Position numbers and translations under genes: made by a program
Assembly: GCA_002269645.1 (NCBI GenBank)
Contig: NIVC01000926.1
Coordinates: forward strand, 186,001-250,000
Length of the DNA stretch: 64,000 bases
Direction of reading: 5' to 3'
Source: Macrostomum lignano
Lineage: Eukaryota
In this document: positions 2,664 through 60,428 of the stretch, in pieces
Numbering within the stretch: the stretch's first letter is position 1
Layout: every line of letters starts with the position of its first letter
The notes under the pieces: generated by a model
Told to the model about the DNA's origin: nothing
Databases searched by the model: none
Seen by the model: only the letters and a program-made list of their open reading frames with translations

Positions 2664-3697
2664 TGAGGTGGGGGTGGAGAAGAACTTTCTTAGAACGGTT
2701 GTTTTTGAATTTGCTGACACCAGTGAGGTGGGGCGGATTCCTCGTTTGAATTGCCGCCGGCGTTGAGTTCGCACGAATAAAACCGGAAAAACGCGCAGAC
2801 GAATCACAACGAAATTTCTTCTCCTGTTTTACTCCGACAGCCGGGTTCTCAAGTCCGGGGGGAGGGTAGTTGTAATCGTAGCGGAGCGGTCGTATAGCGG
2901 CCCGGTCGTTCAGATCCGTAGACTCAATTGGTCTTGACACCGTAAATCTGCTTTTGAATTGTCGTACTGATTACTGTCAGTAGAGTAGCGCTGCCACCAC
3001 CGTAATTTGATCCGTATTACGGAACGTTGGGATCTCAGAGCTCGCTTAGAGTTGAGATCGATTCGGTTGTTTAACGCCCCACGGGCAAATGACTCACGAT
3101 AACTATTATGGGCTTCGTCAACGAGATAGACTTAATTATTAGTTAATTATTATTATTTATTGATGTTGTACTAGCAGGCGTAAATTGGCAAAATAAAGTT
3201 AAATTCAGACGATTGATCCTCGGCCGGTGCCGGGTGGGACGACTAACTGAACAAACTAGTAGATCGAGACTAAATAAGTACTAATTTAACTTCGTGCACA
3301 ACAGGAAATTAAACACTAAACAGACGAGTACACGAGGGTTCACGAAGCGGAATGGAACAGAAAACGAACAAGTAGGAGGCAAGGGAAAGGAAAGAGGGGA
3401 GGAGGGAGGAATGAAAACTTGCGGCCCGAAATGGCCTTAATAAATAATGGGGCGATGTCATCCGGACGGGGATAGAGCAGCAGATGGGGCAGGAAGGCGA
3501 AGGATGGGGCAGGAGATGGGGCGAAGGATGGGGCAACGGACGACAACAAAGCCGGGAATGAGAATACAAAAAATTACGCGCGACGGCAAAAGATGGGGCG
3601 AGTGATGGGACATGGGACGGCGCAACGGGTGACACAGAACGCGAGAGTCATTGCGGTGAGGTCACCTGTTCCAAACGTGGTAGTGCGCCCTACCACA
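2664..3697 (-). repeat. 5' LTR of family A (copy A1, 1034 bp)
   Basis: Termini TGTGGTAGG...CCCCACCTCA, followed by C + TGGTGGTCAGCTAAGTGGGAT (PBS-like); the ~450-bp U5-side core is shared with 4 other copies. Confidence 0.88.
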
Positions 3698-8345: not shown

Positions 8346-9408
8346 TGAGGTGGGGCGGAGGAAGGGTTGTGGTTCTTAGAATTGTTTTTGAAAATTAGCT
8401 GACACTAGTAAGGTAGGGTGGTCTCCATGTTTGAATTACCGCCGACGTTTGCACGAATAAGCTGGAAAATTGTACAGACAAAATCACAATAAAATCTTCC
8501 TCCTTTACTCCGACTGCTGGGTTCTCAGGTCCAGGGGGAGGGTAGTCGTAATTGTAGCGGAGCAGTTGTGTAGTGGCGCAGTTGTTCAAAGCGATGAAAC
8601 ACTGTAAATTCAGACACCGTAAATTAATGTGTCAATTTGCTGAGCTTGTTACTTTCAGTAGGGTAGAGCTGCCACCACCGTAATTTATGTATTACGGAAC
8701 GAATAAGTCTCTGAGCTTTCTTTGAGCTGAGAAAACTTCGGTAATTTTACGCCCCACGGGCAAAAGACTTAAGATGGGCTATGGCTTAATGTCAACAAAT
8801 AAATGTATTTATAAATATGGTTTAATTATTATTAATATTTATTAAATTCAAGTTGAGCAGGATAAACAGTAGGTAAATTATTATATTTTGACAATGGCAA
8901 GAATATTTTGGCAGGCCGCGGTGCTATGGCTAATTTAATTAAGCAAAATAAACCAAACTAAACACAACTAAACTAAGTAAAGGATGAGTGTTAAAAGTAA
9001 CCAAGAGCAGGAAGGTTGGCAGGAAGGAAAGATAAATTTACACAAGTTTAGGCATCAATTTATAGGCAAAATATGCAATGACTGTGCCTGAACCAGAAAA
9101 AAAGAAAATTTAATACGCGTCGGGTCCAGCAGCGGTAGAACAGAAGAAAAAGCATAGAATTAAATGAGGCACGCATTCAAGCAAGCAAAAGGGGAGCAAT
9201 TGTATAAGGAATGAGACTAAAAATCCCATAACGGGATGGGGAGCGTGATACAATTTTGAAACTTTTGTCCCGGCGCGGGAAAGCATAATTTCAGGGTTGG
9301 GAAAGCATGCATGCACGTAAAAGTAGTAATTTTTAAATATTGATATAAGTAACTAATAATGAAATTTATTAAGCAGAATTTATACCGACGGGGCAGCCAC
9401 CTGCCACA
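8346..9408 (-). mobile_element. Solo LTR, family A (copy A2, 1063 bp), TSD ATAG
   Basis: TGAGGTGGGG...CCTGCCACA flanked by ATAG at 8342-8345 and 9409-9412. Confidence 0.92.
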
Positions 9409-25893: not shown

Positions 25894-27403
25894 TGAAGTG
25901 TCGCGGCTTTCTTTGGTTGCCCTGAGAGAAGAGAGGTGGTCCGGTAGGCCTTGGAATCCCACCGCTATCACCAGTGTAGTAACTGAGCTTTTGTTTGCTC
26001 GGGCTAGGTGGACTGCTATTGGCCGGGGCAACTTTAGCGAGCACTTTTATGGGGGCTGAGACTGGGCAGAAATCTAAAATTAAGGGTAGTGCTGCCACCA
26101 GCGTGGGAACCGCAGGATCCGCAATGAAGGGGTCTGTTTGGGCTCCACGCAAATAAATAACGCTAGAACAACTAGTCTCAGATATTTCAATGTCCAAGTG
26201 ACAGGACTCAATGGTAGCAAATGGCCTGAGCGGCGCAGTCTTGGCACTGACAATTGTCCGCGCTTGAGCGTGTCTGAGTTTAGCTCTCAGAGGACCCCTA
26301 ACTCCTACTAACCTAATAGCTACGTCTCACGCAGATAGGCGGCGAGGAAATCGGTCTATGCGCCTGCGGCAGCAATAGACTCTAGGCCTATAAACTAACA
26401 GCTAGTTCTTAGAATCGTGCACGAGTGCTGCGACTGCACACTCACTCTCACTCTTATTCGCGCCTGTGTCGCGAGTAGACACTAGCAGAATGGCTTCAGC
26501 CAACTGATTTCCTGCCAATAGAGTAGGCGGGGAAATCAGAGCTATAGCACTAGCAATGCTCTACCAAGACCTGCTCAGGAGCGTGCTTTCTGCTTGAGCG
26601 CTGCTTTGCTCTACCAAGACCTGCTCAGGAGCTTTGCTTCGCTGTTAACCGGCGCTAGAGCGCTAGACTTGGAGAAAGTTCTCGACAAGTCCTCACGAGG
26701 CGGTTCTGAGGAAAAATTCAGACAGACTGGCCTGCATTCGTCAATACGAGTATAGAACGCGGAGGGTGGAGCGTTTGGGCATTCCGTGGCTTGACCATGG
26801 AACTGCAGCCGAAAAGTGCGGATAATGATGCACAACAGATTTTGATTAAACATGGGGGGGAGAGTAGCTTGTAAAAAAGCGCCGACAGTCGCCTCAAGCC
26901 ACTAGTGACAATAGCATGCCAAATTTGGGCTTGTGCGCACAAGGCTGCACGTGAGGGAGGGTTTAGCTCGGGACACGGGGTCCGCGAAACCCTCAGTCTA
27001 AAAATAGAATGACGCATGGGGAAGGCTCGGACGCAGGAGGAACGAGAGAGCAGAAGGGGGAAGGATCCAGAGAGCGCACGGGGGAGGAGTGCGGCTAACT
27101 AGACTTGCGTACACTGAGCGATCGTACGCGGCAGGCCAGGCAACAACAGTACAGGCAAGCGCCAAATTTGGCGGCTTCCACTAACTAACCCTAGGCTAGG
27201 CAAAACTTCCTAATTTCCTATGTTAAAGAGTCTCATAATGACGACACGATTGTGCCATATTGTGCAACTTCTGAGCGCCAAGGAAGGCTGCTTAGAGTGC
27301 ATAAAGGCAGCAGAAAATTCCTATTCCAGATACTAGCAGCGGACAGCAGTGCCTAAGATGTGACTGCGGCCCTATGCTTGCAGCAGAAGGCTGCGCCACA
27401 TCA
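25894..27403 (-). mobile_element. Solo LTR, family B (copy B1, 1510 bp), TSD ATAG, with internal PBS
   Basis: TGAAGTG...CACATCA flanked by ATAG (25890-25893, 27404-27407); U5 motifs shared with 37691-38868. Confidence 0.8.
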
Positions 27404-33039: not shown

Positions 33040-35159
33040 ACATCGAATATTATTCTCATATGCTCGTATTGACCATACTCTCAATTAGACTAGGTGCACA
33101 TAAGCTTGTATTTATAAACTCGTGAGCTGTAAAGGTCATAAAGTATTGAAATAAACGCATTCGTAATTTAGGTGCACCTAACCTAATGCGAAAAGTCATT
33201 TGTAATAATATTTATAAGTAATCATACTTCTAGTTATTTTCACGACCAATTCCATGCTATTCTACCTGGACTATTCTAACCTGGACTGCAAGCCTCAGAA
33301 TTTCCTCATGTGGGCCTCACTGGGGTTTCGGTGCACAAGATGCGGGGCAGAGACCAAGTTGGGGCAGGGAAGAGAGGGGAAGACAGGAAAGGCAGTGAAC
33401 AATGTGCAGTGAATTTAATTCCAAGTTATTTTATTCAAGGCGACCCATTTCATTCCTTGCTCTTTTCATACTTTAAAGTATGTTCTTTATTGCTCTAGAC
33501 AAGTGTACGGCTTATCAAAAAGCAAATTCTCCTGTTTGTTAGTTTAAATTTCTATTTTTCTTCTTGCAACAATGCAAATTGCAATCCAATGTTCCCGCCT
33601 CTCGTATCTGGCGCTCTCCGCGGCCAGCCGGTTCGCAATGGGCAGGTTGGGGGACCTCCCGCCTTCACTATCTCACTGATGGGCAGTTTTTTTAACTGAC
33701 GGGCAAACAATTACTCCAGGTTTCAATTTGCTGGGTTGTTTGCCCCAAGTTTCAATCTCTGACTCTGAATTTTGGTTGCAAGTCCAGATTGCAAAGTATA
33801 GAAGTTTGGTCTTAGAAAAGGATTCCAAAGCACCAGGTGGGGCCGTGGGGGCGGCAGAGGCAAAGACCTGGCCCTGCAATTCCCAGCGCTCTGCTTTTCG
33901 GTTCAACCTAGGAGCAACTGCACCCAGTGCCCAGTGGTGCAGTAAACCAAATAATTCTATATATCAATTCTAGATTAAGTTTGATATATAGAATTCTTTG
34001 AGTAAACCCAGCCCCAGTTCTGCGGCGCCTTTCGGCCTGGGCATATAATTCTAGATATAGTTTGAAACGAGTATCTAGAATGCTATGGCCTGGGTCACAG
34101 GGGCAATAAATCACTTGTACGAGCACTGGGTTTCCACACAAGGCCTTCACAGCGCAGCCCTTATCTGCTCGCAGGCAGATAAGGGCTCATGGGAGAGATA
34201 TTAAAGAGCGAGGAACAACGGAGCCCTGGCTTTATGTAACAATTCTGTAACAATTCTTACATGTAACAATGTAACAGTTATGTAACACTTTAGCTCGTAT
34301 AAACAGAAAATCTTTTGCTCGTTTTGATCTAAATATTGCAGATGGTGTGGTGTGTTGCTCCATATAGACTCATATAGTAGCATCTGGACTGTAAATTATT
34401 TTTTTCGTTTTTTATTACATGGGAGCAACTTCTCCCCATTATGAAGCTAGCTTAAATTTTCGGGCCTCAAGGAGTCTATTTTTGCTCGTTCAGTCAGTCA
34501 GTCACTCACTCACCCAAGTCACTCTCTAACTCGCTCATCCAATCAGTTACTCACTCACTCATTCTATATACGGTATTTACATGTAAGGCGACCTAGCGGG
34601 CTGGCCTAGCGGAACTCTTTGCCTCCATTTGGCTCCCCAATTTCCTCTTACCGGTAAAACCAAACTACGGGTTGATTGTCTAGGGGTTTTTGCATTGCAT
34701 AGGGGTTTTTGTCTTTGTCCATGGACTCCTAGATATACTAGGTATATCTAGGAGTCCATGCTTTGTCTCGTCTCGAAGTATTTCTTGGTTTATTGTGTCT
34801 TATTTTTCCGTGGGCAGTGGGACCATTTTTCCACCATTTGCAAAAAAGCAAGTCCAGGCAGGCAGTGCGGGATGCGCAGTCTAGTTATATTTCTTGGTCT
34901 GTGCCCCTTGGGCATGCCCCTCTAAAGTATTGTGAACAAAGAAGGATCTGTGCTTCAAATAAAGATCAAGGCCAGCCAGGCTGTAAATTAAAAATGGCCA
35001 TGTTTGAATTGTTCGAAGAACACCTGGATGAGGCAGGCGGAAGGGAAGCAGGATTGTTTATATCATTTTTATGCTTGTTTATTCAGTATTTATGACAGTA
35101 CATAACTTTATTGCCGGTGGTAAAGAACGAGAGTCGCAATTTAGTCGCAAGTTTGGGGA

Positions 35160-35605
35160 GAGATGAGGGTGAGACTGTGAGATAGATGAGGGTGAGACTG
35201 TGAGATAGATGAGGGTGAGACTGTGAGATAGATAAGGGTGAGACTGTGAGATAGATGAGGGTGAGACTGTGAGATAGATGAGGGTGAGGCTGTGAGATAG
35301 ATGAGGGTGAGACTGTGAGATAGATGAGGGTGAGACTGTGAGATAGATGAGGGTGAGACTGTGAGATAGATGATGGTGAGACTGTGAGATAGATGAGGGT
35401 GAGACTGTGAGATAGATGAGGGTGAGACTGTGAGATAGATGAGGGTGAGACTGTGAGATAGATGATGGTGAGACTGTGAGATAGATGAGGGTGAGACTGT
35501 GAGATAGATGAGGGTGAGACTGTGAGATAGATGATGGTGAGACTGTGAGATAGATGATGGTGAGACTGTGAAATAGATGGGGGTGAGACTGTGAGATAGA
35601 CATGA
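35160..35605. repeat. 23-bp minisatellite x~19 (GAGGGTGAGACTGTGAGATAGAT)
   Basis: Directly visible. Confidence 0.95.
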
Positions 35606-36497
35606 AGGTGAGACTGAGATATCGATGCTGCGTGAACTGTCTGGATAAGAGTAGTCTGGGCTGGTTAAAATAATTTTTCCTACTGGAACTGGTGTTACCT
35701 CAACGGTCTACTGACAGTAGCACATCAAGAATGCTTTAATTTTTATTCGCCGTTTTTAGTTTGAATTAAATCAGATGTCAAAGGACTTGTTACGGACTCA
35801 CAAAATGAGTCAGGACAGAAAGGACTGAAATCGGACCCCCCAAAATTACGCTGAAAATAGAACAAAATATCCTCGAAAAACACCGAAAAAGACATTAACA
35901 GTCGGTTTAAAGTCTTAATTGACAAAAAAATTTTTTTGGAAATCAGCTCATGGGGGACCAATCCGAGTCCGATCAGGGTCCGCCGGACTCAACCTTTTAC
36001 ACTGGGAAAGTGCCCGTGAAAATTATTTTCCTAGATGGAAGATTTCTAGCATTGTAGTTTATTTCTCCCAAATAATTTTTTTTAATGGGTAGAACTAATT
36101 TAGGAGTAGCTCTGGGTCTAGGTAATTGAGTTGGGTAGGGTAGGTAATAGGTGCAAAGTGACCTGTCTTACGCTATTTTGTGATTTGGAGATGTTTTTTA
36201 TACTTTTAAGTAAATAAGTAACTACTAACTGCATGGATTGACTGTATACCACTGATTTCTTCACCATGTGTAGTTACTTCTGCATATAAGACGTAAAATG
36301 CAACTGACTTTAAAATAATTCCGTTGCGGATTGTGGATCTCTATAACTACTAGCTTTCAAGTTTCAACAAACAAATAAGAACTAATGCAAGGGAGCCAGC
36401 TATGTCGCCTTAAGGCGGGCAGGCGCCTGACGGAGCCAGTCGGTAATGGCTGTTTTAACTATATTTGATTCGCACTTGCCCGACTTGCTACCCTGGA

Positions 36498-37690
36498 CTA
36501 CCAGTCGCCTAACCAAGGAAATTGTGTTAGCAAAATCCTTGAAGGCAGCCTTTCCACCTCTTTTGCCTTCGTAATTAAAAGACAGCCAATTAACCTAAAA
36601 ACGGCTTTGTGCTGAGAATCAGAAACCATGCAGCCGATATAGGAGGCCAGCATGGTTGATTGTTTAGGAATCCTTAAGTACTGTTCCAGCTGATGCAATT
36701 CGTCCTTTGTGCTTACTGGCAGCACAAAGGGCAAATTTAGCTTTGCAAGCTGGGGCATTTGACGACTAGCCGCCAGTTGTTTTAGCAGCTGGTTATTTTC
36801 CTTCGCTAAAGAAAATGTGGAGCAAACTAAACGCATAAAGTCGTCTCGTCATCTCCCGTGTAACGGAAGTTTTCCTCTGCGCATAATTGCAACAAAAAAC
36901 TTGTACCCAATGGAGCAGCATTATCCGCATGTCGCGATGGGCTAGGAGTCAAATGACTGTCCAGTAGGCCTGGTCCAATGGTGTCGTCATCATCACTGGT
37001 GTATTCAAGCGAGCAGCCAGCTGCCGATTGTACCGGTGTAGGAAGACTGAATTGATAAGGTTAAAGAGCATGACAATTAAGCTTTCAAAAGCAAATATTT
37101 TAGTGGTTTGGATTATACATTGAAATCACCCAGGCCCGCACTTACACCGACCGACCAGAGAAATTCATGCTAGCGGCTGTTTCTTGTCGTTGAACCGAGC
37201 TGCAGGCGCTTGCAGACTGTCCAGCTGCTGAGTGATTTGAGCTAGCGACGCTAGCAGCAGATGCTTACTTCTGTCGTTGAACCGAGTTGTAGCTAGCTGC
37301 ATAGTGCTTTATAAAGAATGAACAAACGTATAATTCGGTTGAAAGTTGCACATGGTTAGCACACGCACGATTTTATTTTAGCATGCAAGGAAATAAAAAG
37401 AAAATAACTAATAGTTGAATCGATAAGCAAAGGGTGAGCAAAGCTCGGAGCCAATCGCTGGTCTCAGCCCAAGACAGTCCCAACCTCGTTGAACACGCGG
37501 CCAAGATGATAGCGCATTGTAATTTAGTCGATCGGCACTCGGGATACAATGCAGCACCTATCCCGGCGAGCCCGGGATCATCTGCCGGATCATCAAGTGG
37601 CTCCTCCTTTGTCCATTCTGGCTCTGACGTTTCTTCGACAAAGCTGTCTGTGTCTGCAGTGGAAGACTCAACCGAGCCAAAAACTGCAAC
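36498..37690 (-). mobile_element. Fragment of a second CMC-like element: transposase N-terminal-like piece and DUF4806-like piece
   Basis: LYPECRSTKLQCAIILAACSTRLGLSWAETSDWLRALL (37430-37600); LPVSTKDELHQLEQYL..LASYIG..VFRLI (36500-36830). Confidence 0.55.
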
Positions 37691-40600
37691 TGAAGTACAG
37701 GCTTCTTCGGTGTCGTCTAGAGATGGCCTGGTAGGTCTTGAAATCCCACCGCTGCCACCAGTGAAGTACAAGCGTCTTGCCTGTGACTGTTGACTAGACC
37801 GCTGCCACCAGTGTCGTGTCTGCTGGCTTCCTCGAGCTGTCTCGGAAGGGCTGGCCGATCTTCTAGCTCCTGGCAGAGGCGTCTAGTTGGATGTTTCTTA
37901 GAACTAGTTCTCGTAGCGTAGGTAGTGCTGCCACCAGCTTCGCAGAGTCGCAGCCTTCGGTGAGGTGCTTAGCTCGTAGAAGCAAATAACTAAGACGAGA
38001 GAGAAAGTTAAGCACTTCGTGCTGATTTAGCAGTTTTCGAACAGAAGCGTCCACAGTCAGCAGTCCCTGCCGGGTTAGTGCAGGGTGAGAGCGATGGTGC
38101 TAGCTTCGGGTGGTCAAAGCTGCCCTGCTAATAGATAGCAGGAACAATCAGAAGCAAGCACGCGCAAAGTCGGGAGTCTTGGGAGTCCAAACTTAGGCTC
38201 AAACTTGGCACACCAACTTAGAGACTTGAACTGAGAGAATCTCCGAGGAAGGGCTGAGGAACGGGCGAAAACGGGTGGAAAACGGGGCGAACGTGCTTGT
38301 CTGAACCAAGCCGTGAGAGGGGCTGCATTTATACGGAGAATCGATTGCACCATAGCACGAAAGACCCCCGCTGAGAGTCATGAGTGACTCTGTTGCTATT
38401 CTTAGCAACAAACAAGCGGGCCTCGCCTCAGAGGAGGCAGGGTGGTCCGGGCGCACGTGATCTCCCCATAAACACGAGCCCAACGCACAATGATGAAATC
38501 ATTGCACTTTGGACTAAAGAAGGAAGAAGGCCCTGTCATGTGACTGGCTGACATGACAAGGGGAAAAGCCCCACAAGTGAACGCACTCGTGACCTTGGGA
38601 CCGGAAAACAGAACGGCACTCCAAATTTGGAGATGCCAAACAGAGAACGAAACAGTGGCAGGCCAGACCAAGCTGTCTGGGACTGCGAAACGAGAGCGCG
38701 GGACAAAAAAAGCAAACGAGGACAAACAGACAGACAAACATGCAAGGGACAGGCCAAAGGACAGGTGAGAAGGGACAGACAACTGCCCAGCGGCAGACAT
38801 AAGTCTGGGGCGAGGGCGAGGGAAACAGCTGACTAGTGCGGCACCTAACTAAATAGCGACTGACTACACTCTCCCCGTTCAAATAAAGAGGCGGAGTGAA
38901 GCGGCGCGCGCTTTATTTAAAATTCAAACAAACAAATGCAGGTTTTAATAAAAAAGTTCGAACGTGAAAATGCTGCGGTAAAATTACTGCTGGGAGATGG
39001 CTGCTAAAAATGATAATGTTGGCTGAGCGAAGGCCGCAAAAGATGGAGGCCCATACCGCGGGAGCGTTGGCCCGCTACTGAACGCCTAAATATTGGTGTG
39101 GGGAGCCATTTCACAAAAGAAAAAAAGGCGCCTAAACACGCGTGAAGGCATCTGCTTCCCTAACCGAGAGTGAGCACTGGGTTGGCGAGAACGTCTCAAA
39201 CCGTAATAAGCAAGGGTTAGCCTAAGGTACTTCCCGCACAGGCAAGACTTAAGGTGCTCCCCCAGAGAGAAGGGACCTGAGCTAATTAGCATGAGTTCCG
39301 AGCGACATGCTGCGCCGGAACAAAACAAAAGAAACAACTAAAAAAGGGGAACCTCAAGCAGCAGGCCCCAAGAACAACTGTGGGAGCATGCTTGAGCGTA
39401 GTCAGGGTTAAAATGCGAATCCTTCAACATGTTTCAGATGTACCGCGTCGACGGCCGGGCCAGGGCCGCCGGCAGATCCGCTTCGCTGCCGCCGAGATTC
39501 CGGGCGATCTCGATCGCCGCCCGGTGTACGGCGTACGGGCGGTACGGTTGCTGCAGATCTGGGCCGCCCAGACGAACGGCCTCGAGCAGGGCCGTCAGCA
39601 GTGGCCTCCGAGGTCTTGTCCGGGCAAATCTCTAAGTAGTGGCAGTCAGCATGGGCATCTCGGCGGAGGGCTGAGGTATCAGTGGCCTCCGGGTTGGTGT
39701 CCAGACTGGTCTCCAGGCGTTGACTGCAGCGATGGTCGTCGTGCTGAAGGGCTGCTGGTGCAGTGGCCTCCAGGTCTTCGGCCAGGGCAGTTTCGGCCTC
39801 CACGTTGCGAGTGTGGACCTTCTTCGAGAGGGCTGCTCTTGCAGTGGCCTCACGTGTGGTGTCCAAGTCCGGCTCCAGGCTGGTGTCATCACCGTGTCGG
39901 GCTGCGGAACCGGGGTGCTCCAGCAGTCGGCCATGATCGAAGTCAACCGGTGGTGTCTCCGGGCGTCTTGACAGGGCGTCAGCGTTGGCTTGGTCCTTGC
40001 CTTTGCGATGGTGAAGCTGGAAGCGGAACTCGCTTAATCGCTCAATCCAACGGCCCAAGATGCCTGTGACCTGCGTCTGGTTCAGCAGCCACAGCAAGGC
40101 CCGATGGTCAGAACGAACTTCAAACTTCTTGCCGATTAAATAATCACGGAAATGTCGCATCGCGTCCACAATTGCAATCAGCTCCTTCTTCGTGACCGTG
40201 TAGCGCTTCTCAGGATCACGAAGTTTCCAGCTAAAAATGCAATCGGGCGCTCGACGCCGTCACATTGTCGTTGTCCAAGACAAGCGCCTATGTGAATGTC
40301 TGAGGCATCAGTGTCTAGGACAAACTTCAAATCAGGATCTGTTAAACTCAGGCAGAGCGAGATCTTCAGTCGAACATAACTTCTTCAACGTGTCGAACGC
40401 TACCTGGTGCTCATCAGTCCAATGCTGCCGCAGGGAGCATTTCGAGTCAGGGCATGCACCGGCGCAGCAAATCCAGCGTAGCCGTAGACAAACTTGTGGT
40501 AGTAATTGGCGAGGCCTAGGAATTGTCTCAGTTGAGTAACTGATTGCGGCACGGGCCAATCACGAATCTGCGCAATCTTGTCCTCACAGGTCTTCAGTCC

Positions 40601-41330
40601 GTTGGGAGTCACGACGTGACCTAGATAATGGAGCTACTTGAGGAACAAATAGCACTTTTTTGGCTTGACCTCGAGGTTGGCTGCGATGATCCGCTGGAGT
40701 ACAGTCCGCAGGTTGTCCAGCTGCTCCTCGAAGGTCAGTGAGTACACCACGATGTCATCCATGTAGCCAAGCGCAGTCTTTGGCGTCAGGCCGTCCAGGA
40801 GCTTATTAATGCAACGCTGAAAACTGCCTGGACTATCGTAGACACCCATCGGTATAACATTGAATCAAAATTGTCCGCGGTCAATCACAGAGAACGCCGT
40901 TAGGTGCTGATCGCAGTCGCGCAGCGGGATCTGCCAGAATCCTTGGGCAAGATCCATGCTTGAGTACCACTGGGCACCACGCAGCTTCGCAAAGGTCTCC
41001 TAAATATGCGGCAGCGGGTACGAGTGGTACACGCACTTGTCGTTGAGAGCTCTGAAGTCATGCACCAGCCTGATGTTGCCGTCCTTCTTGGGCACTATCA
41101 GCATCGGCGAGTTGTAACTAGAGTAGGCGGGGCGAATGATGTGCTTCGCCAGCATTTCGTCTAGCAGAGCGTCGAGCTTGTCGTTCAGATAAAGCGGAAT
41201 CTTGGCTCGGCTCCGGCTGGTAAGAGTTTCTATCGCGACGATCACGGCTCATTCTTCTCTGTTGACGGTACTGAAACCCATAATCGCGCCTCAAATCAGC
41301 TTGTTGTTGCGGCTGTCTGTCATCAACCCA
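37691..41330 (-). mobile_element. Ty3/Gypsy remnant (family B): decayed RT-RNase H, PPT, 3' LTR 37691-38868
   Basis: PPT GGGGAGAG (38869-38876) directly before TGTAGT; LTR ends GTACTTCA at 37691. Confidence 0.82.
39408..41245 (-). pseudogene. pol: pol remnant (RT + RNase H), several stops and frameshifts; no recognisable integrase
   Basis: IIRPAYSSYNSPMLIVPKKDG..HDFRALN, SMDLAQGFWQI, LGYMDD, FLGLANYY, FEVRSDHRAL, NADALSR. Confidence 0.92.
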
Positions 41331-41699: not shown

Positions 41700-44250
41700 T
41701 GTGACGTTGCTACTCGTAGTTTAAGGTGGTCCCGCAAAAGGGCCGTTGGACTGTAGTTTCCCTTGAAATTTCTCATTTTAATTTCTCCAATAGTTTATTT
41801 TAACGGTTACTTGTAATAGCGTGCAAATAATCTGTATCAATGGCTAATTCACTGTGTATTTGGTAGGCCTTGCGTTCGTCTGTAAAATTTAGCACGATCG
41901 ATAATTTCAAGTTCTCTCGCCAGCCAATGAAAACTCTCCGTGTTTTATGCTAACCCTTCTGCGCTCTTTATTAACCCCCGCCTGGCGGCGGGCTGGGGGC
42001 CTCCTCACTTCTGGCTTCGGCGTCTGGCTCTCGTTTTCCTTCTCTCTCTCCTGGCTGCCTCGAGCCTCCTTATCTCTCGCCACGGCTCCTCTGTCTGGGC
42101 CAGCCTGTTTACACACTGTACTCCACTGTGTACTGCCACGGCTAACGCCAATCTCACCGCTACTTATCTGCCTGTTTACTTACTACTCACTGCCTCCACT
42201 GTGCTCATCGCCATCACTCACTACGTTGCGTCGCCATTGTATCCTTCGCCTGCTACTCGACTTCATCATTCTAAATTACCTTCAAAACCATTGTTGCAGC
42301 CGCCAGTGTCCCAAAGCGCAATAAGTTTTGTATTGACATTAACCAGTTCTAATATTGATCTCAACAATAAATTAACTACGGCAGTTTCCTGCCCTTATAC
42401 GCCAAGTGCTCCGCTACACAATCCGCTTTACAAGAATTGACTTCGATTAATTTTGGGACTACAACGACTTACGACGATTCCCGTTAAACGGCCCTTTTAA
42501 GGGTCCTAGCCACTACGCCAATAACGTGACATAATTTTGGAGGTCCCACCGAGACTCCTGCTCAACACTGCCGGCTTGCAACTAATCACCACCAAGGCTT
42601 CTTCTGCTCAGCACTGCCAGCTCACAATCAAGCGCCATCAAGACTTCTGCTCAGCCCTGCTAGTTCGCAACCAAGCGCCAGCGAGACTCTTGCTCAGCTC
42701 TGCCGGCTCGTGACTGAGCACCTGCCTGCCTCGTCTCCGTGTCGGTCCGCAAGGCTGCGAGAGCCTGTGCCACGCCTGAGGGACGGTCCGCAAGGCTGCG
42801 AGAGCCTGTGCCAAGTCAGGGGCTGTCGTCGCTAGTCAGCGCTGGTCGTCGCCCTGAGCAACGCGAGCTGTCAACTGCGTTGAGCTCGAGCTTACGCTCT
42901 GCCAAAATAGCTCCGCTGCGTGTGCCAAGCCACGCCAGGTTACGCTGTGCGCTGATTATTTGTAGGGCCTATTGCCTGACAGTTAGTCCGGGTGGTTTGC
43001 GTGATAGGACTTTCCCCTATTATAGGCTTTTTGTGGTTTGCCCCTGTCAGGCACGTATTTTTGTTACTAGGACGCAATCTCTCTCGCCTCTCTCGCGTCA
43101 TCAACCTCAATTCGTTTTCTCTGGAACCTTATTTTCATTCACGCTTGCGTCATTTGCCTCACTCAATCTTGCAAAATGTCCGACAACGGGACAACCACGC
43201 TGCAGCGTCATTGGCTGACGGAGATGCCGTCGTGCCAGATCAGGACGCAGTCGATGCCGGCGAACAGCCAGCAGGAGCAGCTGCTGCAGCCGCGCCAGCT
43301 CCTAGCGAGCAACTCTTGCTGACTCAAACCTTAGCCTCTCTTCACCGGATGCTCGAAGAGCGTCTCGCCGTTTCCTCGCCGTCAGCGCCAAATTCCTAGC
43401 CGCCTGCGAAGCCAGACATACGCCTTCGCCCTCCAATAGCTTATCAGCCGAAGATGAACTTTGATACGTGGGAAGCTCAGCTTACTTCGTATCTAGCCAC
43501 TTGCCGCGTTCCCGAGGACCAGAAGTCCGCCATTCTCGTATCTTTACTGTCAGCCGAATGCCAAGAGGTATATCTTAATTACCGGTGTGACCAGTTGCCT
43601 TTCGAATCTGCGCTTCGGTTGCTCAGGGAAAGGTACACCGATGCCAAGAAGAAGGACAACGCCTACGTAGAATTAGTTGCTGCTGTCCAATCTCATAATG
43701 AGCAAATGACTGATTTCTTCGACAGACTGGTCTCCTATTCTAGACTAGCGGGCCTCTCGCTCGCTGAAGCGAAGCCCCTACTCAAGGCCAGATTCTGTCA
43801 TGGGCTGAGGGATAAGGACCTCGCCGAAAAGCTCCTCTTATGGGATCAGGAAACCGACAGTGCCACCTCTGCAGAAGAGCTGATGCAGAAGGCCAAAGAC
43901 CTTGTCGGGGTCCGCCAGCTTCTGCATGTGCCTTCTACTGTAGCCAAGGTTCGTGCCATAGAACCTGACGCTGAGAAGAAAGCGTTAGAACAGAGGGTCG
44001 CCGAGCTTGAGAAAATGGTGACCGACCAGGCCAATAGGTTGAGCCAGACCGCTCCGCCAATCAGGGGCCCACTCGCACAGAGCCCACTGGGGGCCCACCA
44101 CAAGTTAGCCAAGCCTATAGGCAACCAAGGTCAGCTCCTCGCCCTCCACGGACTTGCCACCGATGCGGCCAGACCGACCACCTGATCGCTGACTGTCCAT
44201 CGCCCTCGCCGGGACCACAGTCACCAAAGCAGTCCCGCGGGAGCAGGACT
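41700..44250 (+). mobile_element. Ty3/Gypsy 5' remnant (family C): LTR 41700-42531, tRNA-Gln PBS 42538-42554, repeat-containing leader, gag
   Basis: TGTGACGTT...AACGTGACA; TGGAGGTCCCACCGAGA matches the metazoan tRNA-Gln(UUG) 3' end; ~45-bp repeats at 42555-42720. Confidence 0.87.
43176..44245 (+). pseudogene. gag: gag with stop (43397) and frameshifts
   Basis: FDTWEAQLTSYL..KSAILVSLL..QSHNEQMTDFFDRL..RFCHGLRD; CHRCGQTDHLIADC knuckle in a shifted frame near 44155-44200. Confidence 0.85.
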
Positions 44251-44422
44251 GCTTAAAGTTCTTAAAGTCTTAAAGTTTAAAGTCTTAAAGTTTAAAGTTA
44301 AAGGTCTTAAAGTTTAAAGTTAAAGGTCTTAAAGTTTAGATTTTTTAGCTCATGAGTTGCTACAGTAAGTAATGACTAACAGCAATTAAAAAATCAATAT
44401 ATTTAACAGCTATACACAATTA

Positions 44423-45090
44423 CCTTTACCCCAGCCTGGCGCACGGTCTGCCGCAGGAGGCTGTACGCCTCGGCAATTAATTTGAAATCAAGGCCACTAG
44501 TCTGTTGAAAGTTAAAATAAAATAAGGTTCAAATGATTTTGTTTAAATAATTACTGATTGTTATTGCGAGTAGGAATTCTTGGCATGAAAGTACCAAAAT
44601 GTGCTTGTTTGACTAATTTTTTAAACATAAAACTTACCGAGGACTGCTGCTCTTCAGCCGCTGAGTCTAGCCTTTTCCTTTTGCGGTTGTTGGCTGTGGC
44701 GGCGGCTTGAGTGGCAGGTGCGGCGGCAAATTAATTGGCCACGCCCCGCTGGCCAAACAAGTCTCAAAGCTGCTTTTATAATTGTTGGCATACAACAGGA
44801 GCACTTTGCAGCCTTCTTCAGAGAAAATTTTATTTAGATCAGCTGAATTTTTTCCGTGATCGTTCTTGATGTGTATGCGAAGGCCTGTTTGTTGCCGGAA
44901 GACCTTGCACTCTGGGCACATCATAATGCCGCACTTTTTTTTGGCATGTAAGTACCTCATCGTCTCGTCCACTGCCAAGAGACTGGCTCCATGTTTGTCA
45001 GATAAATGTGTTCTGAGATTATCTGATCTCATTTGCTCCTTGTTTTCGCAATTGTAAGCTGGACACGCAAAATGTGAAGCCATCTGACTG
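44423..45090 (-). pseudogene. Spliced gene fragment with two C2H2-like zinc fingers
   Basis: CPAYNC..LRTHLSDKH and CPEC..LRIHIKNDH; GT-AG boundaries near 44636 and 44500; frameshift near 44680. Confidence 0.5.
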
Positions 45091-46156
45091 CAAGTGAAAT
45101 AGATTACAGCTTTTTTACAGTGATTTGTAAATAAATTTATTGTGTAATGATACACAGCTTTCTATAGTTAAGACATCAGATAAATAATATTTTTTCTCAA
45201 AATAATACATTGACTAAAATGAATCAAAGTAAGTAATTCAGTAACTTTTTACCATCAAGTTACTAAATAAAGGTTAAAACTAGCTATGGAACTATCTAAA
45301 AATTTGTTTGAAACTAGCAGTGGCTACAAATCTATGTTTAAAGCGAAAATATTTGCTTCGCTGTTGTACTTGGATGTACTTGCTCTGAAATTCGGCGCAA
45401 CTCAGACGACACCGAGGTTACGACTTTGACTGACTGGTACACGAATGCTAAGCAGAGCGATACCGAGTTTCAACCTCTGGGTGCTCCGTGTCCATCAGGT
45501 GCGGTTGGCGGCTCTTCTGACCAAAGGGGAAACAACAGGCGAGTTGTTATGCAACTACCGGTTTCGCACGAATCCTTCCCTGATGTAGACGAAATTGTCT
45601 TGGACTTTGGAGAAGGAATAAAGGTGCGCGTGTTCATTGTACATGTAACTTATTTAATGTTTAGTATCTTTCTGTAGGACAGATCTATGCACTCTAATTT
45701 ACTACAGTATTGTATATTACTCAGTCAAGAATGTATAAAATTTTGTTTTAAGCAAACTTGTAAATTTTTGTTCATTAATTATACCTTTCTACAGAAGCTA
45801 TACAGACTGGTGCCGTCTGGCGAGAGCCAACTCGAGTCAACACGAATCGACTGGAGTACGCAGGCGGATGAAAGAAGTAGAATGTCATGCGAAGATTTCT
45901 CTGGCAGTTCAAGAAATCAGTGAGTTATTGAAGCACATGTGTTGAAAAGCCATCACAAGTAAATTTTAGCATGGAAAAAGAATTGCTACATTGGCCCTAC
46001 ATGCTAAAATTCCTGCTGCATTGGCATTGGCATGAATATGAAGTACCTTTAGATTGGGTGCATAAGTCCAATTTGGATACTAAAATTTAGGATATGGGCT
46101 ATTTAAGATATGGGCTATTTAAAACTTAATTGTAGTTTTGGTACTCCAGTAAGATT

Positions 46157-46775
46157 TCTGAGAATTTCAGCTAAGTAGAGTTGTGAGAATTTCCGCTAAT
46201 ATGGTTTATGAAAATTTCAGCTAATGAGATTTCTGAGAATTTCAGCTATTGGGATGTGTGAGAATGTCAGCTAATGGGAGTTCTGAGACTTTCAGCTAAT
46301 GGGATTTCGGAGAATTTCAGCTAATGGGATTTCGGAGAATTTCAGCTAATGGGAGTTCTGAGAATTTCAGCTAATGGGAGTTCTGAGAATGTCAGCTAAT
46401 GGGGTTTCTGAGAATTTCAGCTAATGGGAGTTCTGAGAATTTCCGCTAATATGGTTTATGAAAATTTCAGCTAATGAGATTTCTGAGAATTTCAGCTATT
46501 GGGATGTGTGAGAATTTCAGCTAATGGGAGTTCTGAGAATGTCAGCTAATGGGAGTTCTGAGAATGTCAGCTAATGGGAGTTCTGAGAATGTCAGCTAAT
46601 GGGATTTCTGAGAATTTCAGCTAATGGGAGTTCTGAGAATTTCAGCTAATATGGTTTATGAAAATTTCAGCTAATGAGATTTCTGAGAATTTCAGCTATT
46701 GGGATGTCTGAGAATGTCAGCTAATGGGAGTTCTGAGAGTTTCAGCTAACGGGAGTTCTGAGAATTTTAGCTATT
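46157..46775. repeat. 25-bp satellite x~25 with higher-order structure
   Basis: GAGAATTTCAGCTAATGGGAGTTCT; variant block GCTAATATGGTTTATG recurs at 46195, 46445 and 46645. Confidence 0.95.
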
Positions 46776-51999: not shown

Positions 52000-54529
52000 G
52001 CAAAGGCCTACTTGTGCGACTTATTTTGGCTGTCGTATTTCCGTCTTTCTTGTCAGTGTTCACAAATTTTGCCGATCGCTTTCTCGATAAAGATAATTGC
52101 TCTCGCTGCTTCTTCAGCTCTCGCTGCTTCTCCAGTTCTCGCTGCTTCTCCAGTTCTCGCTGCTTCTCCAGCTCTTGCTGCTTCTCCTGCTCTTGCTGCT
52201 TCTCTAGTTCTCGCTGCTTCTCCAGTTCTCGCTACTGCTCCAGTTCTCGCTGCTTCTCCTGCTCTTGCTGCTTCTCCAGCTCTCGCTGCTGCTCCAGCTG
52301 CTTCTCCAGCTCTTGCTGCTTCTCCAGTTCTCGCTGCTTTTCCACTTCTGACTATCCCTGCTCAAATTCTGCTCCCCTCGCAGTAGACAATTGAGTAGAA
52401 TCAATCACGTTTTTTACCTGATGCACACGCAACAGATATTTGAATTATACTACGTATTTCATCAGGAGCTACGGATACGGCCAACTCCAGATGATCAAGT
52501 GCCTTTGTTACATGCTGTTTTGCAATCACAGCTGAAAGCTGCGAACTCTCTTCTTCCAACTTCCAACCATTATGTTTCAACCACTCCTTTCCGGCAGCAG
52601 CCGCTTTCGCTCGCTTGGAATGGTCTTGGTGACAATTCTATATTTTTTTTATGTCGAAAAATTGCTACCCCATCACGGTAGGCCAGAGCTAAACCATTTT
52701 CCGAAATATAATTGAGATTCGTTCCAGGAGCCCTTCGAAGTAGAGAACCGGACAGTGGAATGTTTAGGATCTGAGCAGCTACACGAACACAAGTCGCTGT
52801 TAGTCTGATGCCGACGACCACTTCCTTGTCTGGAAAGGGTAAGGGCAGTTCTCCTTTTGGCTCAAAGACCGAAAAAGGATCGTTAATGAAAGCCTGAAAT
52901 GAATTATATAACTTTTATTACATGCAAAAACATGCTTCCATAACATCGAAAATAACTTCAAAGCGTTGACAGAAACATAGTGACATAAAAGACAAGTGTA
53001 CAGTCACATTTACTTCACTTTTTCTTACTTGAAAAAACTCTACTAAGCAAATACTGGACTTGGTTAAGTGAATCCTAGCATTGAAGATAAGAAAAAACAG
53101 GAAAACCATGAATTACTACTCAGATATGAAAGGACATGAGTGGCCGTGACTCGATTGGCCCTTCCTCGTGTTGGATTACAAGCCCAGAAAAAAATGATTC
53201 CAGTTGTCGATGGCGGCAGGCATCGTTGCGGCAGATGCTTCTTATCAGGAATAAATGGCCATTTCCAAGTAACTCCAGAACTATGTCCAGTTCGCTGCTT
53301 TCGAGATTTCCGTCAACGATGCTGCTACCGTTTCGCCGCCAACGCAGAAAGCCTTTGCGCCAGAATGACTCTGTTTGTACTATCAGTGTAGCACGGGCAT
53401 GCATGGCTTCTTGATCGGTGCGGCTAGCGGTAGCTTTTCTGCAGTACCGGCCTAGCCGATGAAGCTCTTGAAGTCAAGACGCCAAAATGGCTTCACGGAA
53501 TGTCTCGCGATCTCTATATGCAAATGCAATACCAGTGAGGAACCCATCAACAGTACAAGTGTTGTGCAGCATTACTGTTACGAGTTTCCCATTAAAAGGT
53601 ACACTGGTCGGTAAATTTTACATATTTGCCACATCAGTGTACTTAAGTTCATTTTAATGTATTCTCTAGACATGTACACAAACTATTGTACTCGCTTCCA
53701 TTTGCGAATTAGAACATGAAACTCTTGCTTCTCTTGCGCATTACGCCGAATCGAATCCAGCACAAAGACCTTTCGTTCAACGCCGCAAATAACGATCAAG
53801 TAAAAATGCCCACTGTTTAAAATTGGCACGATTATTTGATTCAGGCCCTGCAGCATCAAGAGAGCAAATAATTTTATATCTCAAATTGGTGCATTCGTAA
53901 GATTTTCATTGAGAATTCAGTATAAGTGTACAAATTTATTCTGCATCAAAAACGACATCATTGTTTCATTAATAGAACTTGCCTTCCATCCGAGAGTTCT
54001 TCTCAGCAAGTTCTGGACTCCATCGTTGAACTCATCTCCTGAGAGAAATGTTCAACGAAATATGTACTCGTAGTAAAAGTCGCCCTCACTTTTTACAATC
54101 CTTTGGGCGTTGTTCGATGTGATAGCAGTGCAATAGGCCAATAAAATCTATCGCGAGTAATGCAAGAGGGACAGGAAAAGATAATGGTGAAAATTCATCA
54201 CAAGCCAACTGAATTTTCTATTCTATTTATTAAAATACTTACCGTGTAGTCTACAAGGTTGCTTCCCAACAAACTTTGACGATGCTCTTGCGTTACGGGA
54301 ATATCCGTTCCAGAGCCAGGAAGGGTGAAGAGAATCAGGCTATTATCGCTTTGCACGGTTCTTCCTTTCTGCCGCGTGCTCCTCTTGCTTTGCCACCTGC
54401 TTCTACTGTTATCTGCGGATCCATTTTGACTGGAATTTTTATTGGGTCTGTTCTTGCCTGTGCATCCCGGATGTTTTGATTTTGGGTTGCTCTGTTGTGA
54501 CTGACTGCTACTCTTTTCCGTTTCGTCAT
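52000..54529 (-). pseudogene. Decayed multi-exon TE-associated gene with Ulp1/C48-like protease motif and KQRELE coiled-coil repeats
   Basis: IIVPILNSGHFYLIVI..VFVLDS (53740-53840), HNTCTVDGFL, CDCKTAC; 18-bp repeat 52100-52345 reading EKQRELEKQQELE; many stops. Confidence 0.45.
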
Positions 54530-55189: not shown

Positions 55190-55790
55190 AAATTGGAGGA
55201 AAAAGAAGAGAGATGAGATGAGGAGAGGAGAGAGTAGAAAGTAGAGATGAGAGAGATGAGATGAGACAGAGAGAGGAGAGAGGAGAAAGTAGAGAAGAGA
55301 TATATGAGATGAGAGAGAGAGAGGAAGGAGGAGAAAGTAGAGATGAGAGAGAAGAGATTAGAGATTAGAGAGTGGAGAGAGAGGAGAGAAGATATTGAAA
55401 GAGAGGGGGCATAAGAGGGGAAAGAAAATAGTACAGAGGGGAGAGTTGAGAACATATAAGAGAGTAAAGATGACAGAAGAGAGAGTGGAGATGATCGAGA
55501 GAGCAGGGACGAGAGTGAACAGACGACAGATGGTAGAATAGAGAGAACAGAGGAGAGAGAAGTGATAAGAGAGAAGCTATTACGGAGACGAGAGCAGAGA
55601 GGAGAGACAAAGGGAGAGAGAAGTGGAGTGAGGAAAGAGGAGAGAAGAGGGGGGAGAATCGAGAGCACAGTGGAGAGAGGGGAAGGGAGAGACGGGTGAG
55701 GAGAGGAAAGAAAATAATGGAGGGGGGAGAGAATAGAAAGGAGATGAGAGATGAGAGAGCAGAGAACAGAGAGATGAGTGGAGAGACAAG

Positions 55791-55864
<74 letters not shown>

Positions 55865-55877
55865 ATAGAGAGAGAGA

Positions 55878-55932
<55 letters not shown>

Positions 55933-56869: not shown

Positions 56870-57899
56870 TGAGGTGGGGGTGGGAAGAAAATAAAAAAAA
56901 TGCTTGGTTGGGATTGGGGTGTTTCTTCGAAAACCGGTTAGCGTTGCGTTCGCACGAATAATGCCGGAAAAATCACGCAGACGAATCACAACGAATTTCT
57001 TCTCCCTTTACTCCGACAGCCGGGTTCTCAAGTCCGAGGGGAGGGTAGTCGTAATCGTAGCGGAGCGGTCGTAGAGCGGCACGGTCGTTCAAATGTAGAA
57101 ACACCGGAGTTTATGACTCCGTAAATTAATGCGTCGATTTGTCGAACTGGTTACTTTCAGTAGGGTAGTTGCTGCCACCACCGTAATTTACGTATTACGG
57201 AACGTTAATGATCTCCGAGCTTTCTTTGAGTTGAGACTCTGGTTATTTTACGCCCCACGGGCAAATGATTCAAGATAGGCTATGGCTATGTCAACGAATA
57301 AATAGTAATTGAGATTAAATTGTCGGTGTTATTTATTTATTATTATTCAACAAAGTACTAATCGTTAGCAGGCGTCGTAATTGTTAAGTTGTTAACCGAC
57401 GAGTATTTTCGACGACGACGGATGTCGAAACAGTGGGAACTGAATAAGTAAGAATTAACTGAACCAAAGAAAACTGAACAAACTAGACACGCGTAATGCC
57501 AGAGCCGAGAGAGCGGGCGAGGTGGTTGGTGTGATCGCAGCAGAACCATTACTTTAAATAGTCAAAAAAATTAAATCAAACACGGGGCGGGGTTTGGGGC
57601 AGAAGGCTGGACAACAAGGTGGGCGAACAAGTGGGCAACATGGTGGGCAAAACTAATTCCATCACATTAAATAGCAAAAATTACAAAACCAACAAGGGGG
57701 AAAAATTAATTCAACGGCGGGGCAAACAAGAGGGACAACAAGGGGGAAAACAGGAGCAACACTGGGAAAAGAAATAGACACCACCGTTGGAGGCAAAATA
57801 ATCCGGGAATTAGGGGTCAAATTAAATTAAAAAATATTATTATTCGTACTTTACGAGGAACTTTTAAGTTCAAAGTTTTGTGGCAACCCGCCTGCCACA
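56870..57899 (-). mobile_element. Solo LTR, family A (copy A3, 1030 bp), TSD CATG
   Basis: TGAGGTGGGG...CCTGCCACA; CATG at 56866-56869 and 57900-57903; lies between two ~140-bp direct repeats (56712-56848, 57932-58075). Confidence 0.92.
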
Positions 57900-58136: not shown

Positions 58137-59193
58137 TGAGGTGGGGGTGGAGAAGATTAAAGAAATATTTGATAATGAATTTGATTCGGCGGTTTGAATT
58201 GTTAGTCGACACCAGTGAGGTGGGGCGGATTCCACGTTTGAATCGCTGCCTGCGTTGTCTCGACACTCGTAAAGCCGGAAAATTTCTCGAATTGATGCAC
58301 TGATTCTTCTCCTTGGTTACTCCGTCTGCCGGGGTCCTCAATTCCGGGGGGGGGGGTAGTCGTGATCGTAGTCGAGCGGTCTTTTAGTGGCACGATCGTT
58401 CAAATTGAGTCCTCAGACACCGTAAATGTCGTGATCTGTCGATGTACTCGGCTTGTTACTGTCAGTAGTAAAGTAGCGCTGCCACCACCGTAAATTCGTA
58501 TTACGGAACGTTAAGGGTCTCAGAGCTTTTTGAGTTGAGACTGATCGGTTATTTTACGCCCCCTGGGCAAATGACTCAATATAGACTAAAGGCTTCGGTT
58601 AAGATCAACTGGATAATATTAATTAACTTGGAAACTTATTTATTTACTATTATTGTCGATTTTATTAAAAGAGACGCTACGCGAGGCTGATTCGGCTGTG
58701 CCGAGAGGGAGCACACTAGGAATTAATATAAGTAGTAACGCGTAAGGCTTGCAAAGAAACCGAACTCAGAGAACAAATTAAACACGGAAACCTAAGCTAA
58801 CAATAGCAAGAAACAAGGTAACACGAACTAAAGAAGAAAACGGCATGAACAAAACGCCTCCAACTCCGGCGGAAATATATAACAAAATTAGCATGGATTA
58901 CCCAGGGGGTGGGACAGAGGATGGCACAAGGGAGGGGCAACGAGGGGAAAAGAGAAAAACCCGGCCACTGGAGTCACTAAAACAACAGTGGCCAAAGGGG
59001 GAACAACAAAAGGGAACAGACGAGGGAACAAAGGCGGGGACAACCTGGGGAACAAACAGGGGAGCATACATTAAGAAAAATGACGTCAACTCCATCACCC
59101 GTTGGGGATTGAGCCCGGTCGCAGCCTGCCGTCGTCCGCGAGGGACGTCTGCCGTCGCTCACCCCAGTGGTAGACCGGCCTAGGCCTACCACA
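58137..59193 (-). mobile_element. Solo LTR, family A (copy A4, 1057 bp), TSD GTAT
   Basis: TGAGGTGGGG...CCTACCACA; GTAT at 58133-58136 and 59194-59197. Confidence 0.92.
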
Positions 59194-59233: not shown

Positions 59234-60198
59234 TGAGGTGGGGTGGAGAAGAATTTTTTTCTTGGACTGTTGGGTTTTGAAAAATTTACTGACATCAATG
59301 AGGTGGGGCGGATTCCTCGTTTGAATTTCCGCCGGCGTTGTTGAAACACGAAGAAAGCCGGAGAACTCGCGCAGACAAAACCTCAATGAAATTCTTCTCC
59401 TTTTACTCCGACAGCCGGGTTCTCAAGTCCGGGGGGAGGGTAGTTGTAATCGTAGCGGAGCGGTCGTAGAGCGGCACGGTCGTTCAGTTGTAGAAACACA
59501 GGAGATTCTGACTCCGTAAATTAATGCGTCGATGAGTTGAACTTGTTACTTTTAGTAGGGTAGTTGCTGCCACCACCGTAATTTACGTATTACGGAACGT
59601 CTAATGGTCTCCAAGCTTTCTTTGGGATGAGACTTCGGTTATTTTACGCCCCACGGGCAAAGGATTCAAGATAGGCTATGGCTTAAATCAACGGATAAAG
59701 AGTAGTTAATATTTAATTCGTCGGCGTTATTTCTTTATTAATTATAATTCATTAAAACGTTTTGTTAGCAGGCGTTGGAAATTTATTTTGTTGCGAACGA
59801 GAATAGGGGGCCGCCGACGACGGATGCCGAGACTGCGCAATGAATAAAATTAACTACAACTAAACAAGGAGAGAGAGCGAAGGAAAGATAAAAACATCGC
59901 GGCAGAAACCGAAACTTAAATAAGAAAAGATATTAAATTCAATCCCATGGCGAGGGTTGGGATGGATGACTGGACAACAGGGTGGGCGAGCCCGTGGGCA
60001 ACCTGATGGACAAAAAATCACAACGAATAAGATAGCAAAATTGGGAAATATCAACAAAAGACAAAAAAATTCCAACGGCGGGGCAAACCGGAGGGACAAC
60101 AATAGGAGAACACAAAACAACACCGGGAAAAAAGGAGACACAACCATTGGAAAAGTAACAAGGAAAAATTTCCGGGAATTGGGAGTCAAATTAAATTA
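59234..60198 (-). mobile_element. LTR, family A (copy A5), U3 end missing or interrupted near 60198
   Basis: Core matches A1-A4; U3 side resembles A3 up to CAAATTAAATTAA, then unrelated sequence. Confidence 0.85.
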
Positions 60199-60428
60199 AG
60201 GGTGCGTTCGAGTGGCTTAAAATAACTTAAAATGACTTAAAATGATTTTAAGCGCCATTTTAACGTCCTCAGTAAAACAAAACAAATAACAAAATTTTAT
60301 TTAAACAAACCGGTAAGTATTTATAAACAATGTTTTAAGGGTTATAAAAACCTATTTTAATATTTTAAATGGGTAGATAGTCAGTCTAAACATGTTTTCT
60401 ACATTTTGAGAAGGTAATTTATAACAAA

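Follow-up and report, generated by a model that had tools for sequence, protein, structure and literature searches.

LTR ends and the primer-binding sites (PBSs) that follow them are usually treated as single fixed landmarks, and a long terminal repeat of Macrostomum lignano with several PBS-like copies raises the question of where such a repeat ends and how the additional copies came to lie where they do. The original prediction had placed three tRNA-Leu PBS-like copies and a repeated terminus, GTACTTCA, in the U5 of a 3′ LTR, and all of the positions given for them were verified, on the minus strand of the 64-kb stretch of DNA that we analysed (hereafter the window). The parts of the locus, read along that strand, are as follows.

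39945..41203, minus: remnant of a Ty3/gypsy reverse transcriptase (RT) and RNase H (Pfam RVT_1 and RT_RNaseH; limits from tblastn)
38869..38880, minus: polypurine tract, 11/12 purines, abutting TGTAGT at 38868
37691..38868, minus: 3′ LTR of a broken element, 1178 bp, TGTAGT...ACTTCA with a 5/6 inverted match; end set by the host-ORF alignment
37921..37936, minus: 10-nt PBS-like motif then ACTACC, without a preceding CA+C
37798..37817, minus: inner junction 2, ACGACA + C + 13-nt PBS copy, as far from the 10-nt motif as in the solo LTR B1
37762..37797, minus: tail 2, a shortened and diverged copy of tail 3 that terminates in the old LTR end (12/14 nt equal to the outer end)
37742..37761, minus: spacer C and 19-nt PBS copy of the tRNA-Leu AAG type
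37691..37741, minus: tail 3, closing with the true LTR terminus GTACTTCA; its homologue is the final 61 nt of B1
37442..37690, minus: target, a putative transposase-like host ORF remnant, 88% to P0103, with the match starting at the codon right after the LTR end

The 19-nt copy (37760-37742) is preceded by GTACTTCA+C and the 13-nt copy (37810-37798) by GACA+C, so that CA+C stands before both as it does at a true LTR/PBS junction; the 10-nt copy lies at 37936-37927. That CA+C+PBS is the form of real junctions is seen at the 5′ LTR of a sister family described below and in the Echinococcus ta-TRIM sequences contained in the part of the PMC4558846 supplement that was covered. The terminus GTACTTCA occurs at 37769-37762 and again at 37698-37691, the two ends being offset by 71 nt, and 51 nt follow the 19-nt copy up to the outer LTR end. 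The first 18 nt of the 19-nt copy are the complement of a LeuAAG 3′ fragment printed in the covered part of PMC12452697, the 19th base lying outside the comparison. Neither ARAGORN nor Rfam found tRNA genes in the 64-kb window. When bacterial and archaeal genomes were scanned the 19-mer occurred at 41 loci, four of which are 3′ ends of tRNA genes called Met, which supports the PBS geometry and not the isotype, and most of the remainder look like chance coding matches. Seven loci (L005, L007, L011, L014, L016, L017 and L035; positions 121-139) are filed as bacterial assemblies and look like eukaryotic LTR/PBS junctions, L014 continuing with further tRNA-like complement and a tandem repeat. From its position, the PBS-bearing part of the LTR is probably U5. 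The signals AATAAA and ATTAAA are absent from both the 37691-38868 LTR and B1.

Does the LTR end at 37691, or at the inner terminus 71 nt before it? A search with the flank after 37691 gave a sole match among 733 candidates, the Macrostomum lignano protein P0103, and the alignment begins at the codon directly past ACTTCA, the preceding residues being different. Since the interrupted host ORF resumes at the very next codon, the LTR end is placed at 37691. We read this ORF, from its sequence, as probably transposase-like; it has just a weak DUF1258 match, below the cut-off, ESM Atlas gave no match for it, and its left part was not recovered by tblastn. A second line of evidence is the tail itself, whose last 14 nt repeat the inner end at 12/14 and whose 51 nt align over their full length with the terminal 61 nt of B1 (0/2000 shuffles), an LTR whose end is bounded by a target-site duplication (TSD). 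The host-ORF boundary and this homology uphold the proposal that 37691 is the true end and that the PBS copies lie inside the LTR. A tandem-element junction at 37762, which had been named as the case that would overturn it, fails at this locus: the PBS is followed by 51 nt, a second LTR end and then the host ORF, which resumes after 37691. No TSD was found within 1.8 kb upstream of 37691, as expected inside the element. Gene fragments resembling those of DNA transposons surround the element at 36498-37690 and 44667-45677 (the transposase-like remnant, a small spliced-looking ORF and a zinc-finger ORF), and look like a nested transposon cluster.

The assignment to a 3′ LTR also held, given that the purine tract abuts the start at 38868 and that RT and RNase H lie upstream. 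Three in-frame stops and two shifts of frame interrupt the RT-RNase H remnant, and everything 5′ of 41203 (5′ LTR, gag, protease) is gone, leaving a 5′-truncated element; self-BLAST found no 5′ LTR for it in the 64-kb window. The RT is 91% identical to the Macrostomum lignano protein P0003, with the next best among the 100 matches listed at 52%, and its homologues are Pol polyproteins. A gypsy-type RT followed by RNase H, together with a polypurine tract abutting a TG...CA 3′ LTR, places the element among the Ty3/gypsy LTR retrotransposons. P0003, which is partial and ends after RNase H, has the order protease, linker, RT, RNase H. Many of the homologues matching the RT carry rve; Pfam gave no integrase match in the 283-aa ORF after RNase H, and none was seen downstream in the window. 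Where integrase would be expected, at 39408-39945 (minus), there is instead an ORF of about 180 low-complexity codons with repeated GAGGCCACT. As no integrase follows RNase H, the Gmr1 domain order, with integrase between protease and RT, was considered as an explanation and set aside, P0003 having no integrase there. The Gmr1/Osvaldo elements of M. lignano, 40 families according to the covered parts of PMC12801592, share the host of the best protein match, and these families have the standard PR-RT-RH order seen in P0003; assigning our element to that cluster is a guess. Elsewhere in the window, non-LTR-like RT fragments (RVT_1 match) lie at 20171-22520 (minus), split by an insertion, and tandem repeat arrays of various periods at 15625-16390, 23380-23985, 35158-35640, 46152-46773, 52098-52370 and 55195-56426.

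Within the LTR, tails 2 and 3 are clearly related (0/500 and, in a second comparison, 0/2000 shuffles reach the score). The spacer between the 10-nt motif and junction 2 (spacer 1) resembles tail 3 less closely (14/500) and is not counted as a rung, and it has no significant likeness to tail 2 (298/500). TRF reported no tandem array over the modules, and the end at junction 2 matches the other ends at just 3-8/14. Intactness of the PBS copies falls from the outside to the inside (19, 13 and 10 nt), in agreement with what a ladder of successive captures of end and PBS, as originally proposed, would predict.

The solo LTR B1 lies elsewhere in the window.

25894..27403, minus: B1 solo LTR with the 4-bp TSD CTAT, the 10-nt motif at 26100, ACTACA+C+PBS (17/19) at 25973 and a 61-nt tail

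Copies of CTAT flank it; CTAT+TG occurs four times in the 1.8 kb that were searched, once at the border of AT-rich flank and LTR. The element LTR and B1 share the order 10-nt motif with ACTACC, 116 or 117 nt, AC(G/T)ACA + C + PBS, tail and ACTTCA, and the spacing from motif to junction is 126 nt in the former and 127 in the latter. The original prediction also noted that about 23 nt after the PBS are common to both, and here 18/22 nt are identical, a score that 2/500 dinucleotide shuffles reach. The 116-nt spacers are barely alike (62/2000 shuffles in global and 418/500 in local alignment) and the LTR bodies do not align (37/100 shuffles reach the score), so the two represent distinct families. 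The suggestion that the element independently repeats the B1 architecture is not supported, since tail, terminal ACTTCA and spacing are common to both and point to common descent; the shared layout looks inherited, with one extra duplication in the element LTR. That extra part is one 50-nt rung bearing the 13-nt PBS copy. The inner end of B1 matches its own outer end at just 8/14, and the B1 outer end matches the inner ends of three family A LTRs (see below) at 10/14.

The 10-nt motif behaves differently from the longer copies. The exact 10-mer occurs nine times in the window against 0.09 expected (0/100 shuffles), always inside LTRs, and is exact in 7/7 LTRs of three families, a figure that is inflated because these LTRs were found through the motif. 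In 7/7 it lacks a preceding CA+C. It is followed by CTAC, and a short hairpin with the CTAC arm is predicted in 6/7 local folds and also in a longer fold of the 37691-38868 LTR; CTAC might in addition base-pair with the tRNA's 5′ acceptor strand. In an alignment of family A the motif falls in the longest invariant run (16 columns), where 48% of all columns are invariant and other invariant runs span 8-13 columns. The motif might be the oldest rung or, more likely, an element or signal kept separately. The ladder thus survives in part: the LTR end and two rungs with the signature end+C+PBS stand, and the third, 10-nt rung, without CA+C and exact in 7/7 LTRs, is not supported. The seven Leu-type LTRs all have minus-strand orientation, and the TSDs found are CTAT twice, CATG and ATAC.

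A better case for recurrence than B1 is provided by family A, five repeats that are LTRs of one family ending in CCCCACCTCA.

2664..3697, minus: family A 5′ LTR with the 10-nt motif (2999) and an inner end+C+PBS-like module (2722), followed by C and a PBS-like sequence at 2662-2642, gag and protease
8346..9408, minus: family A solo LTR flanked by the TSD CTAT, with its inner module at 8407
56870..57899, minus: family A solo LTR flanked by the TSD CATG, with the 10-nt motif and an inner module that is decayed or missing
58137..59193, minus: family A solo LTR flanked by the TSD ATAC, with its inner module at 58214
59234..60199, minus: family A LTR without a recognisable 5′ start, inner module at 59297, no TSD in 1.8 kb

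TSDs of 4 bp stand before the start TGTGG(C/T)AGG in three of the four solo candidates. The inner end followed by one base and a PBS-like module is present in 4/5 family A LTRs, and the 10-nt motif in 5/5. Counted over all seven LTRs, the end+C+PBS modules number 2, 1, 1, 1, 1, 1 and 0, three of the LTRs that contain them being TSD-bounded solo LTRs (B1 and those at 8346 and 58137), and the inner PBS precedes the functional position by 60-81 nt in all six outer modules of the three families. The inner ends of the four family A copies match their own outer end at 10-13/14 and that of the element at 6-7/14; across families, B1 excepted, inner ends are closer to the outer end of their own family (12/14 in the element LTR) than to that of the other (6-7/14). 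Since this holds in spite of a Pol identity of only 38% between family A and P0003 (protease and linker compared), the module was probably made or refreshed after the families split. No significant match was found between the family A inner spacers and the leader after the functional PBS in any of four comparisons (170-431/2000 shuffles).

Some further features of family A and its neighbours were seen. The PBS-like sequence after the 5′ LTR (2642-2662, minus) differs from the AAG type and looks bulged; we take it to resemble that for another Leu isoacceptor, the 10-nt motif upstream staying of the AAG type. A primer switch is not claimed, the same T variant occurring three times against 119 of the G form among the ta-TRIM PBSs in the covered part of PMC4558846. 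Family A LTRs have a conserved CCGTAAT/ATTACGG hairpin just before the 10-nt motif, and about 45 nt past it a second ATTTACGG(T/A)GTC, which may be a decayed module. No upstream PBS copy was seen in two further LTR elements of the window whose PBSs differ (0/2; 400 and 700 nt scanned). The LTR element at 41900-44256 (plus) has a different PBS at 42538 and no inner PBS copy; a 43-nt repeat lies in its leader (42546-42710), and its gag ORF at 43400-44185 has a weak PNMA match. An element with gag, PR and RT terminates in a 55-nt repeat (98%) of its own LTR end and PBS (60429-60483 and 62413-62467, minus), and this copy stops right at the PBS end, as a plus-strand strong-stop end would.

We consider it probable that the repeat is the 3′ LTR of a dead Ty3/gypsy element in whose lineage the LTR end was displaced outward, beyond an old primer site. 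The element LTR contains two end/PBS junction copies and ends one module past the last of them, and LTRs bounded by TSDs or host sequence contain 0-2 such copies each. In both LTRs, U5 is copied from the segment of the RNA that extends from the 5′ end to the PBS actually used. An inner junction is therefore heritable only if the downstream PBS primes, from which we infer that the end moved outward after a duplication of end and PBS. A segment spanning the two would have been duplicated at the 5′ LTR, priming from the downstream copy would then have made the junction heritable, and integrase would have cut at the new end. One such shift, common to the element LTR and B1, would be old, and a second duplication, of the PBS-tail-end unit, would have produced the extra rung of the element LTR, its upstream copy later losing about 27 nt and diverging. 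With two PBSs in the RNA, the plus-strand strong-stop copy of the PBS could anneal to the wrong site, or the template could slip, and a module would be gained or lost. A functional PBS downstream was observed in family A and not in the element's own family, and the source of the duplicated segment is untraceable because the inner spacers of family A do not match the leader. A tandem duplication at the DNA level after insertion could be the source of the extra rung. A conceivable source of the tails would be reverse transcription through the whole tRNA.

Several other explanations can be set against this one. Chance is negligible; a 10-mer is short, but nine matches face an expectation of 0.09, and the 13-mer and 19-mer are expected 0.001 and 3e-7 times in 64 kb. 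It is also improbable that the copies are one-off pieces of tRNA sequence retained at a cDNA end, from an unremoved primer or a plus-strand strong-stop end, or a local chromosomal duplication, the LTR not being heritably changed. Reverse transcriptase copies 18-19 nt from a tRNA primer, which fits the length of the copy, and a 55-nt repeat of end and PBS does close another element at 60429-60483; such retention, however, would stop at the PBS and not add a 51-nt tail with a new integrase end, and the module recurs in five other LTRs. For the single extra 13-nt rung it may nevertheless apply. Less probable still is a tandem-element junction, in which the LTR would end at 37762, the 19-nt PBS would open a second, deleted element, and GTACTTCA at 37691 would be fortuitous. 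The 19-nt copy is indeed perfect and follows CA+C, and tandem LTR arrays are known (PMC7215508, in the parts covered), but similarity to the host ORF sets in with the codon that directly follows 37691, 12 of the final 14 nt agree with the inner end, and the tail aligns to B1 up to the TSD of the latter.

A more serious alternative, if still an unlikely one in our judgement, is that selection maintains the PBS-like sites upstream as second binding sites for tRNA or 3′-tRFs in the 5′ RNA, with dual initiation, RNA bridging or a structural switch as the proposed roles and the end-like sequence as a by-product of origin. The constant position of the inner PBS in six of six outer modules from three families agrees with this, and the steady spacing of 60-81 nt is not explained by accident alone. 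So does the 10-mer, exact in every LTR and within the longest invariant run of family A, although the LTRs were located via the motif and family A has other invariant runs of 8-13 columns. In two of the 41 loci with the 19-mer, L005 and L014, an exact 9-mer precedes it by 72 and 61 nt respectively, against 0.03 expected, and none follows it; set against this, both are filed as bacterial assemblies (we would take them for retrotransposon junctions from co-assembled eukaryote DNA), 120 nt of flank were examined, and the upstream copies have no clean CA+C. The covered parts of two papers describe a primer of Drosophila gypsy that anneals at two sites (PMC1635307) and 3′-tRFs that act on PBS sequences (PMC12853362). 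Against a kept site are the mismatches in the first 9 nt of the inner copies in B1 and in 3/4 family A copies, and the one TSD-bounded family A LTR that lacks the module. A kept second tRNA site is compatible with an origin by sliding of the LTR end, function then being the reason for persistence.

Templates with two primer sites are known in other settings. Voronin and Pathak are said to have described, in 2004, engineered retroviral vectors with two tandem PBSs in which initiation is possible at either. On a two-PBS template, priming at the downstream site carries the upstream one into both LTRs. Plant Ogre elements have two PBSs in the internal region. The dual-PBS vectors are laboratory constructs, whereas the modules of the element LTR are natural, inherited and variable in number. 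Drosophila gypsy and yeast Ty3, with their two-part PBS, likewise have more than one primer-tRNA site on the genomic RNA (PMC1635307, covered in part). In those elements, according to the same part, the additional site lies close to the 3′ end and binds a different region of the tRNA; the copies described here repeat the same 3′-end complement, inside U5 and together with an old LTR end. In Cassandra a PBS follows an internal LTR, as in the element LTR, but what is repeated is whole LTRs and the internal domain, not a short end+PBS module in U5 (PMC7215508, parts covered). Helenus TRIMs likewise have tRNA-related sequence inside their LTRs; the covered sections of PMC10886601 describe it as a tRNA-like Pol III promoter with no role in complementarity, and contain no short end+PBS module in U5.

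Closest to the LTRs analysed are the flatworm lennie/Saci2 and ta-TRIM elements, which have a tRNA-Leu PBS, a 4-bp TSD and TG...CA ends in the covered portions of PMC4558846 and PMC12471100. The ta-TRIM junctions, CTACA+C or T+TGGTGGCAGCGG, have the form of our inner modules; ta-TRIM LTRs, however, are about 198 bp with no inner PBS copy in the four records displayed there, and ours are 1.0-1.5 kb (PMC4558846, covered part). PBS type and TSD length are the only points of agreement with a Saci2/lennie-like clade, of which the element is at most a candidate member. The LTRs of the Gmr1/Osvaldo families were set by self-BLAST of consensus sequences (PMC12801592), and the parts of that paper covered contain no analysis of PBSs or LTR ends, 'PBS' having 0 occurrences in five supplements. 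No report of end+PBS modules inside LTRs was found in the literature searched, whose coverage left most subscription journals outside, and curated repeat libraries may already contain these LTRs without comment.

We are thus dealing with a real and recurrent U5 architecture in a known class of elements. If it is limited to a few Macrostomum families, it is a modest observation for specialists. It carries a risk for annotation, in that solo or 3′ LTRs with inner modules can be mistaken for 5′ LTRs or tandem junctions. The mechanism by which primer type changes is called unknown in the covered part of PMC10886601, and inner modules of end and PBS offer a concrete route for change of U5, of the integrase end and perhaps of the primer. 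More tentatively, and here we are doubtful, many tRNA-Leu-primed animal gypsy elements could be natural multi-PBS retroelements, with a second primer site some 60-80 nt upstream in U5 that is renewed by repeated sliding of the LTR end; in family A the motif upstream of a different PBS variant is still of the AAG type. Were this true, changes in the LTR end, and possibly in the primer tRNA, could be read off the stacked modules.
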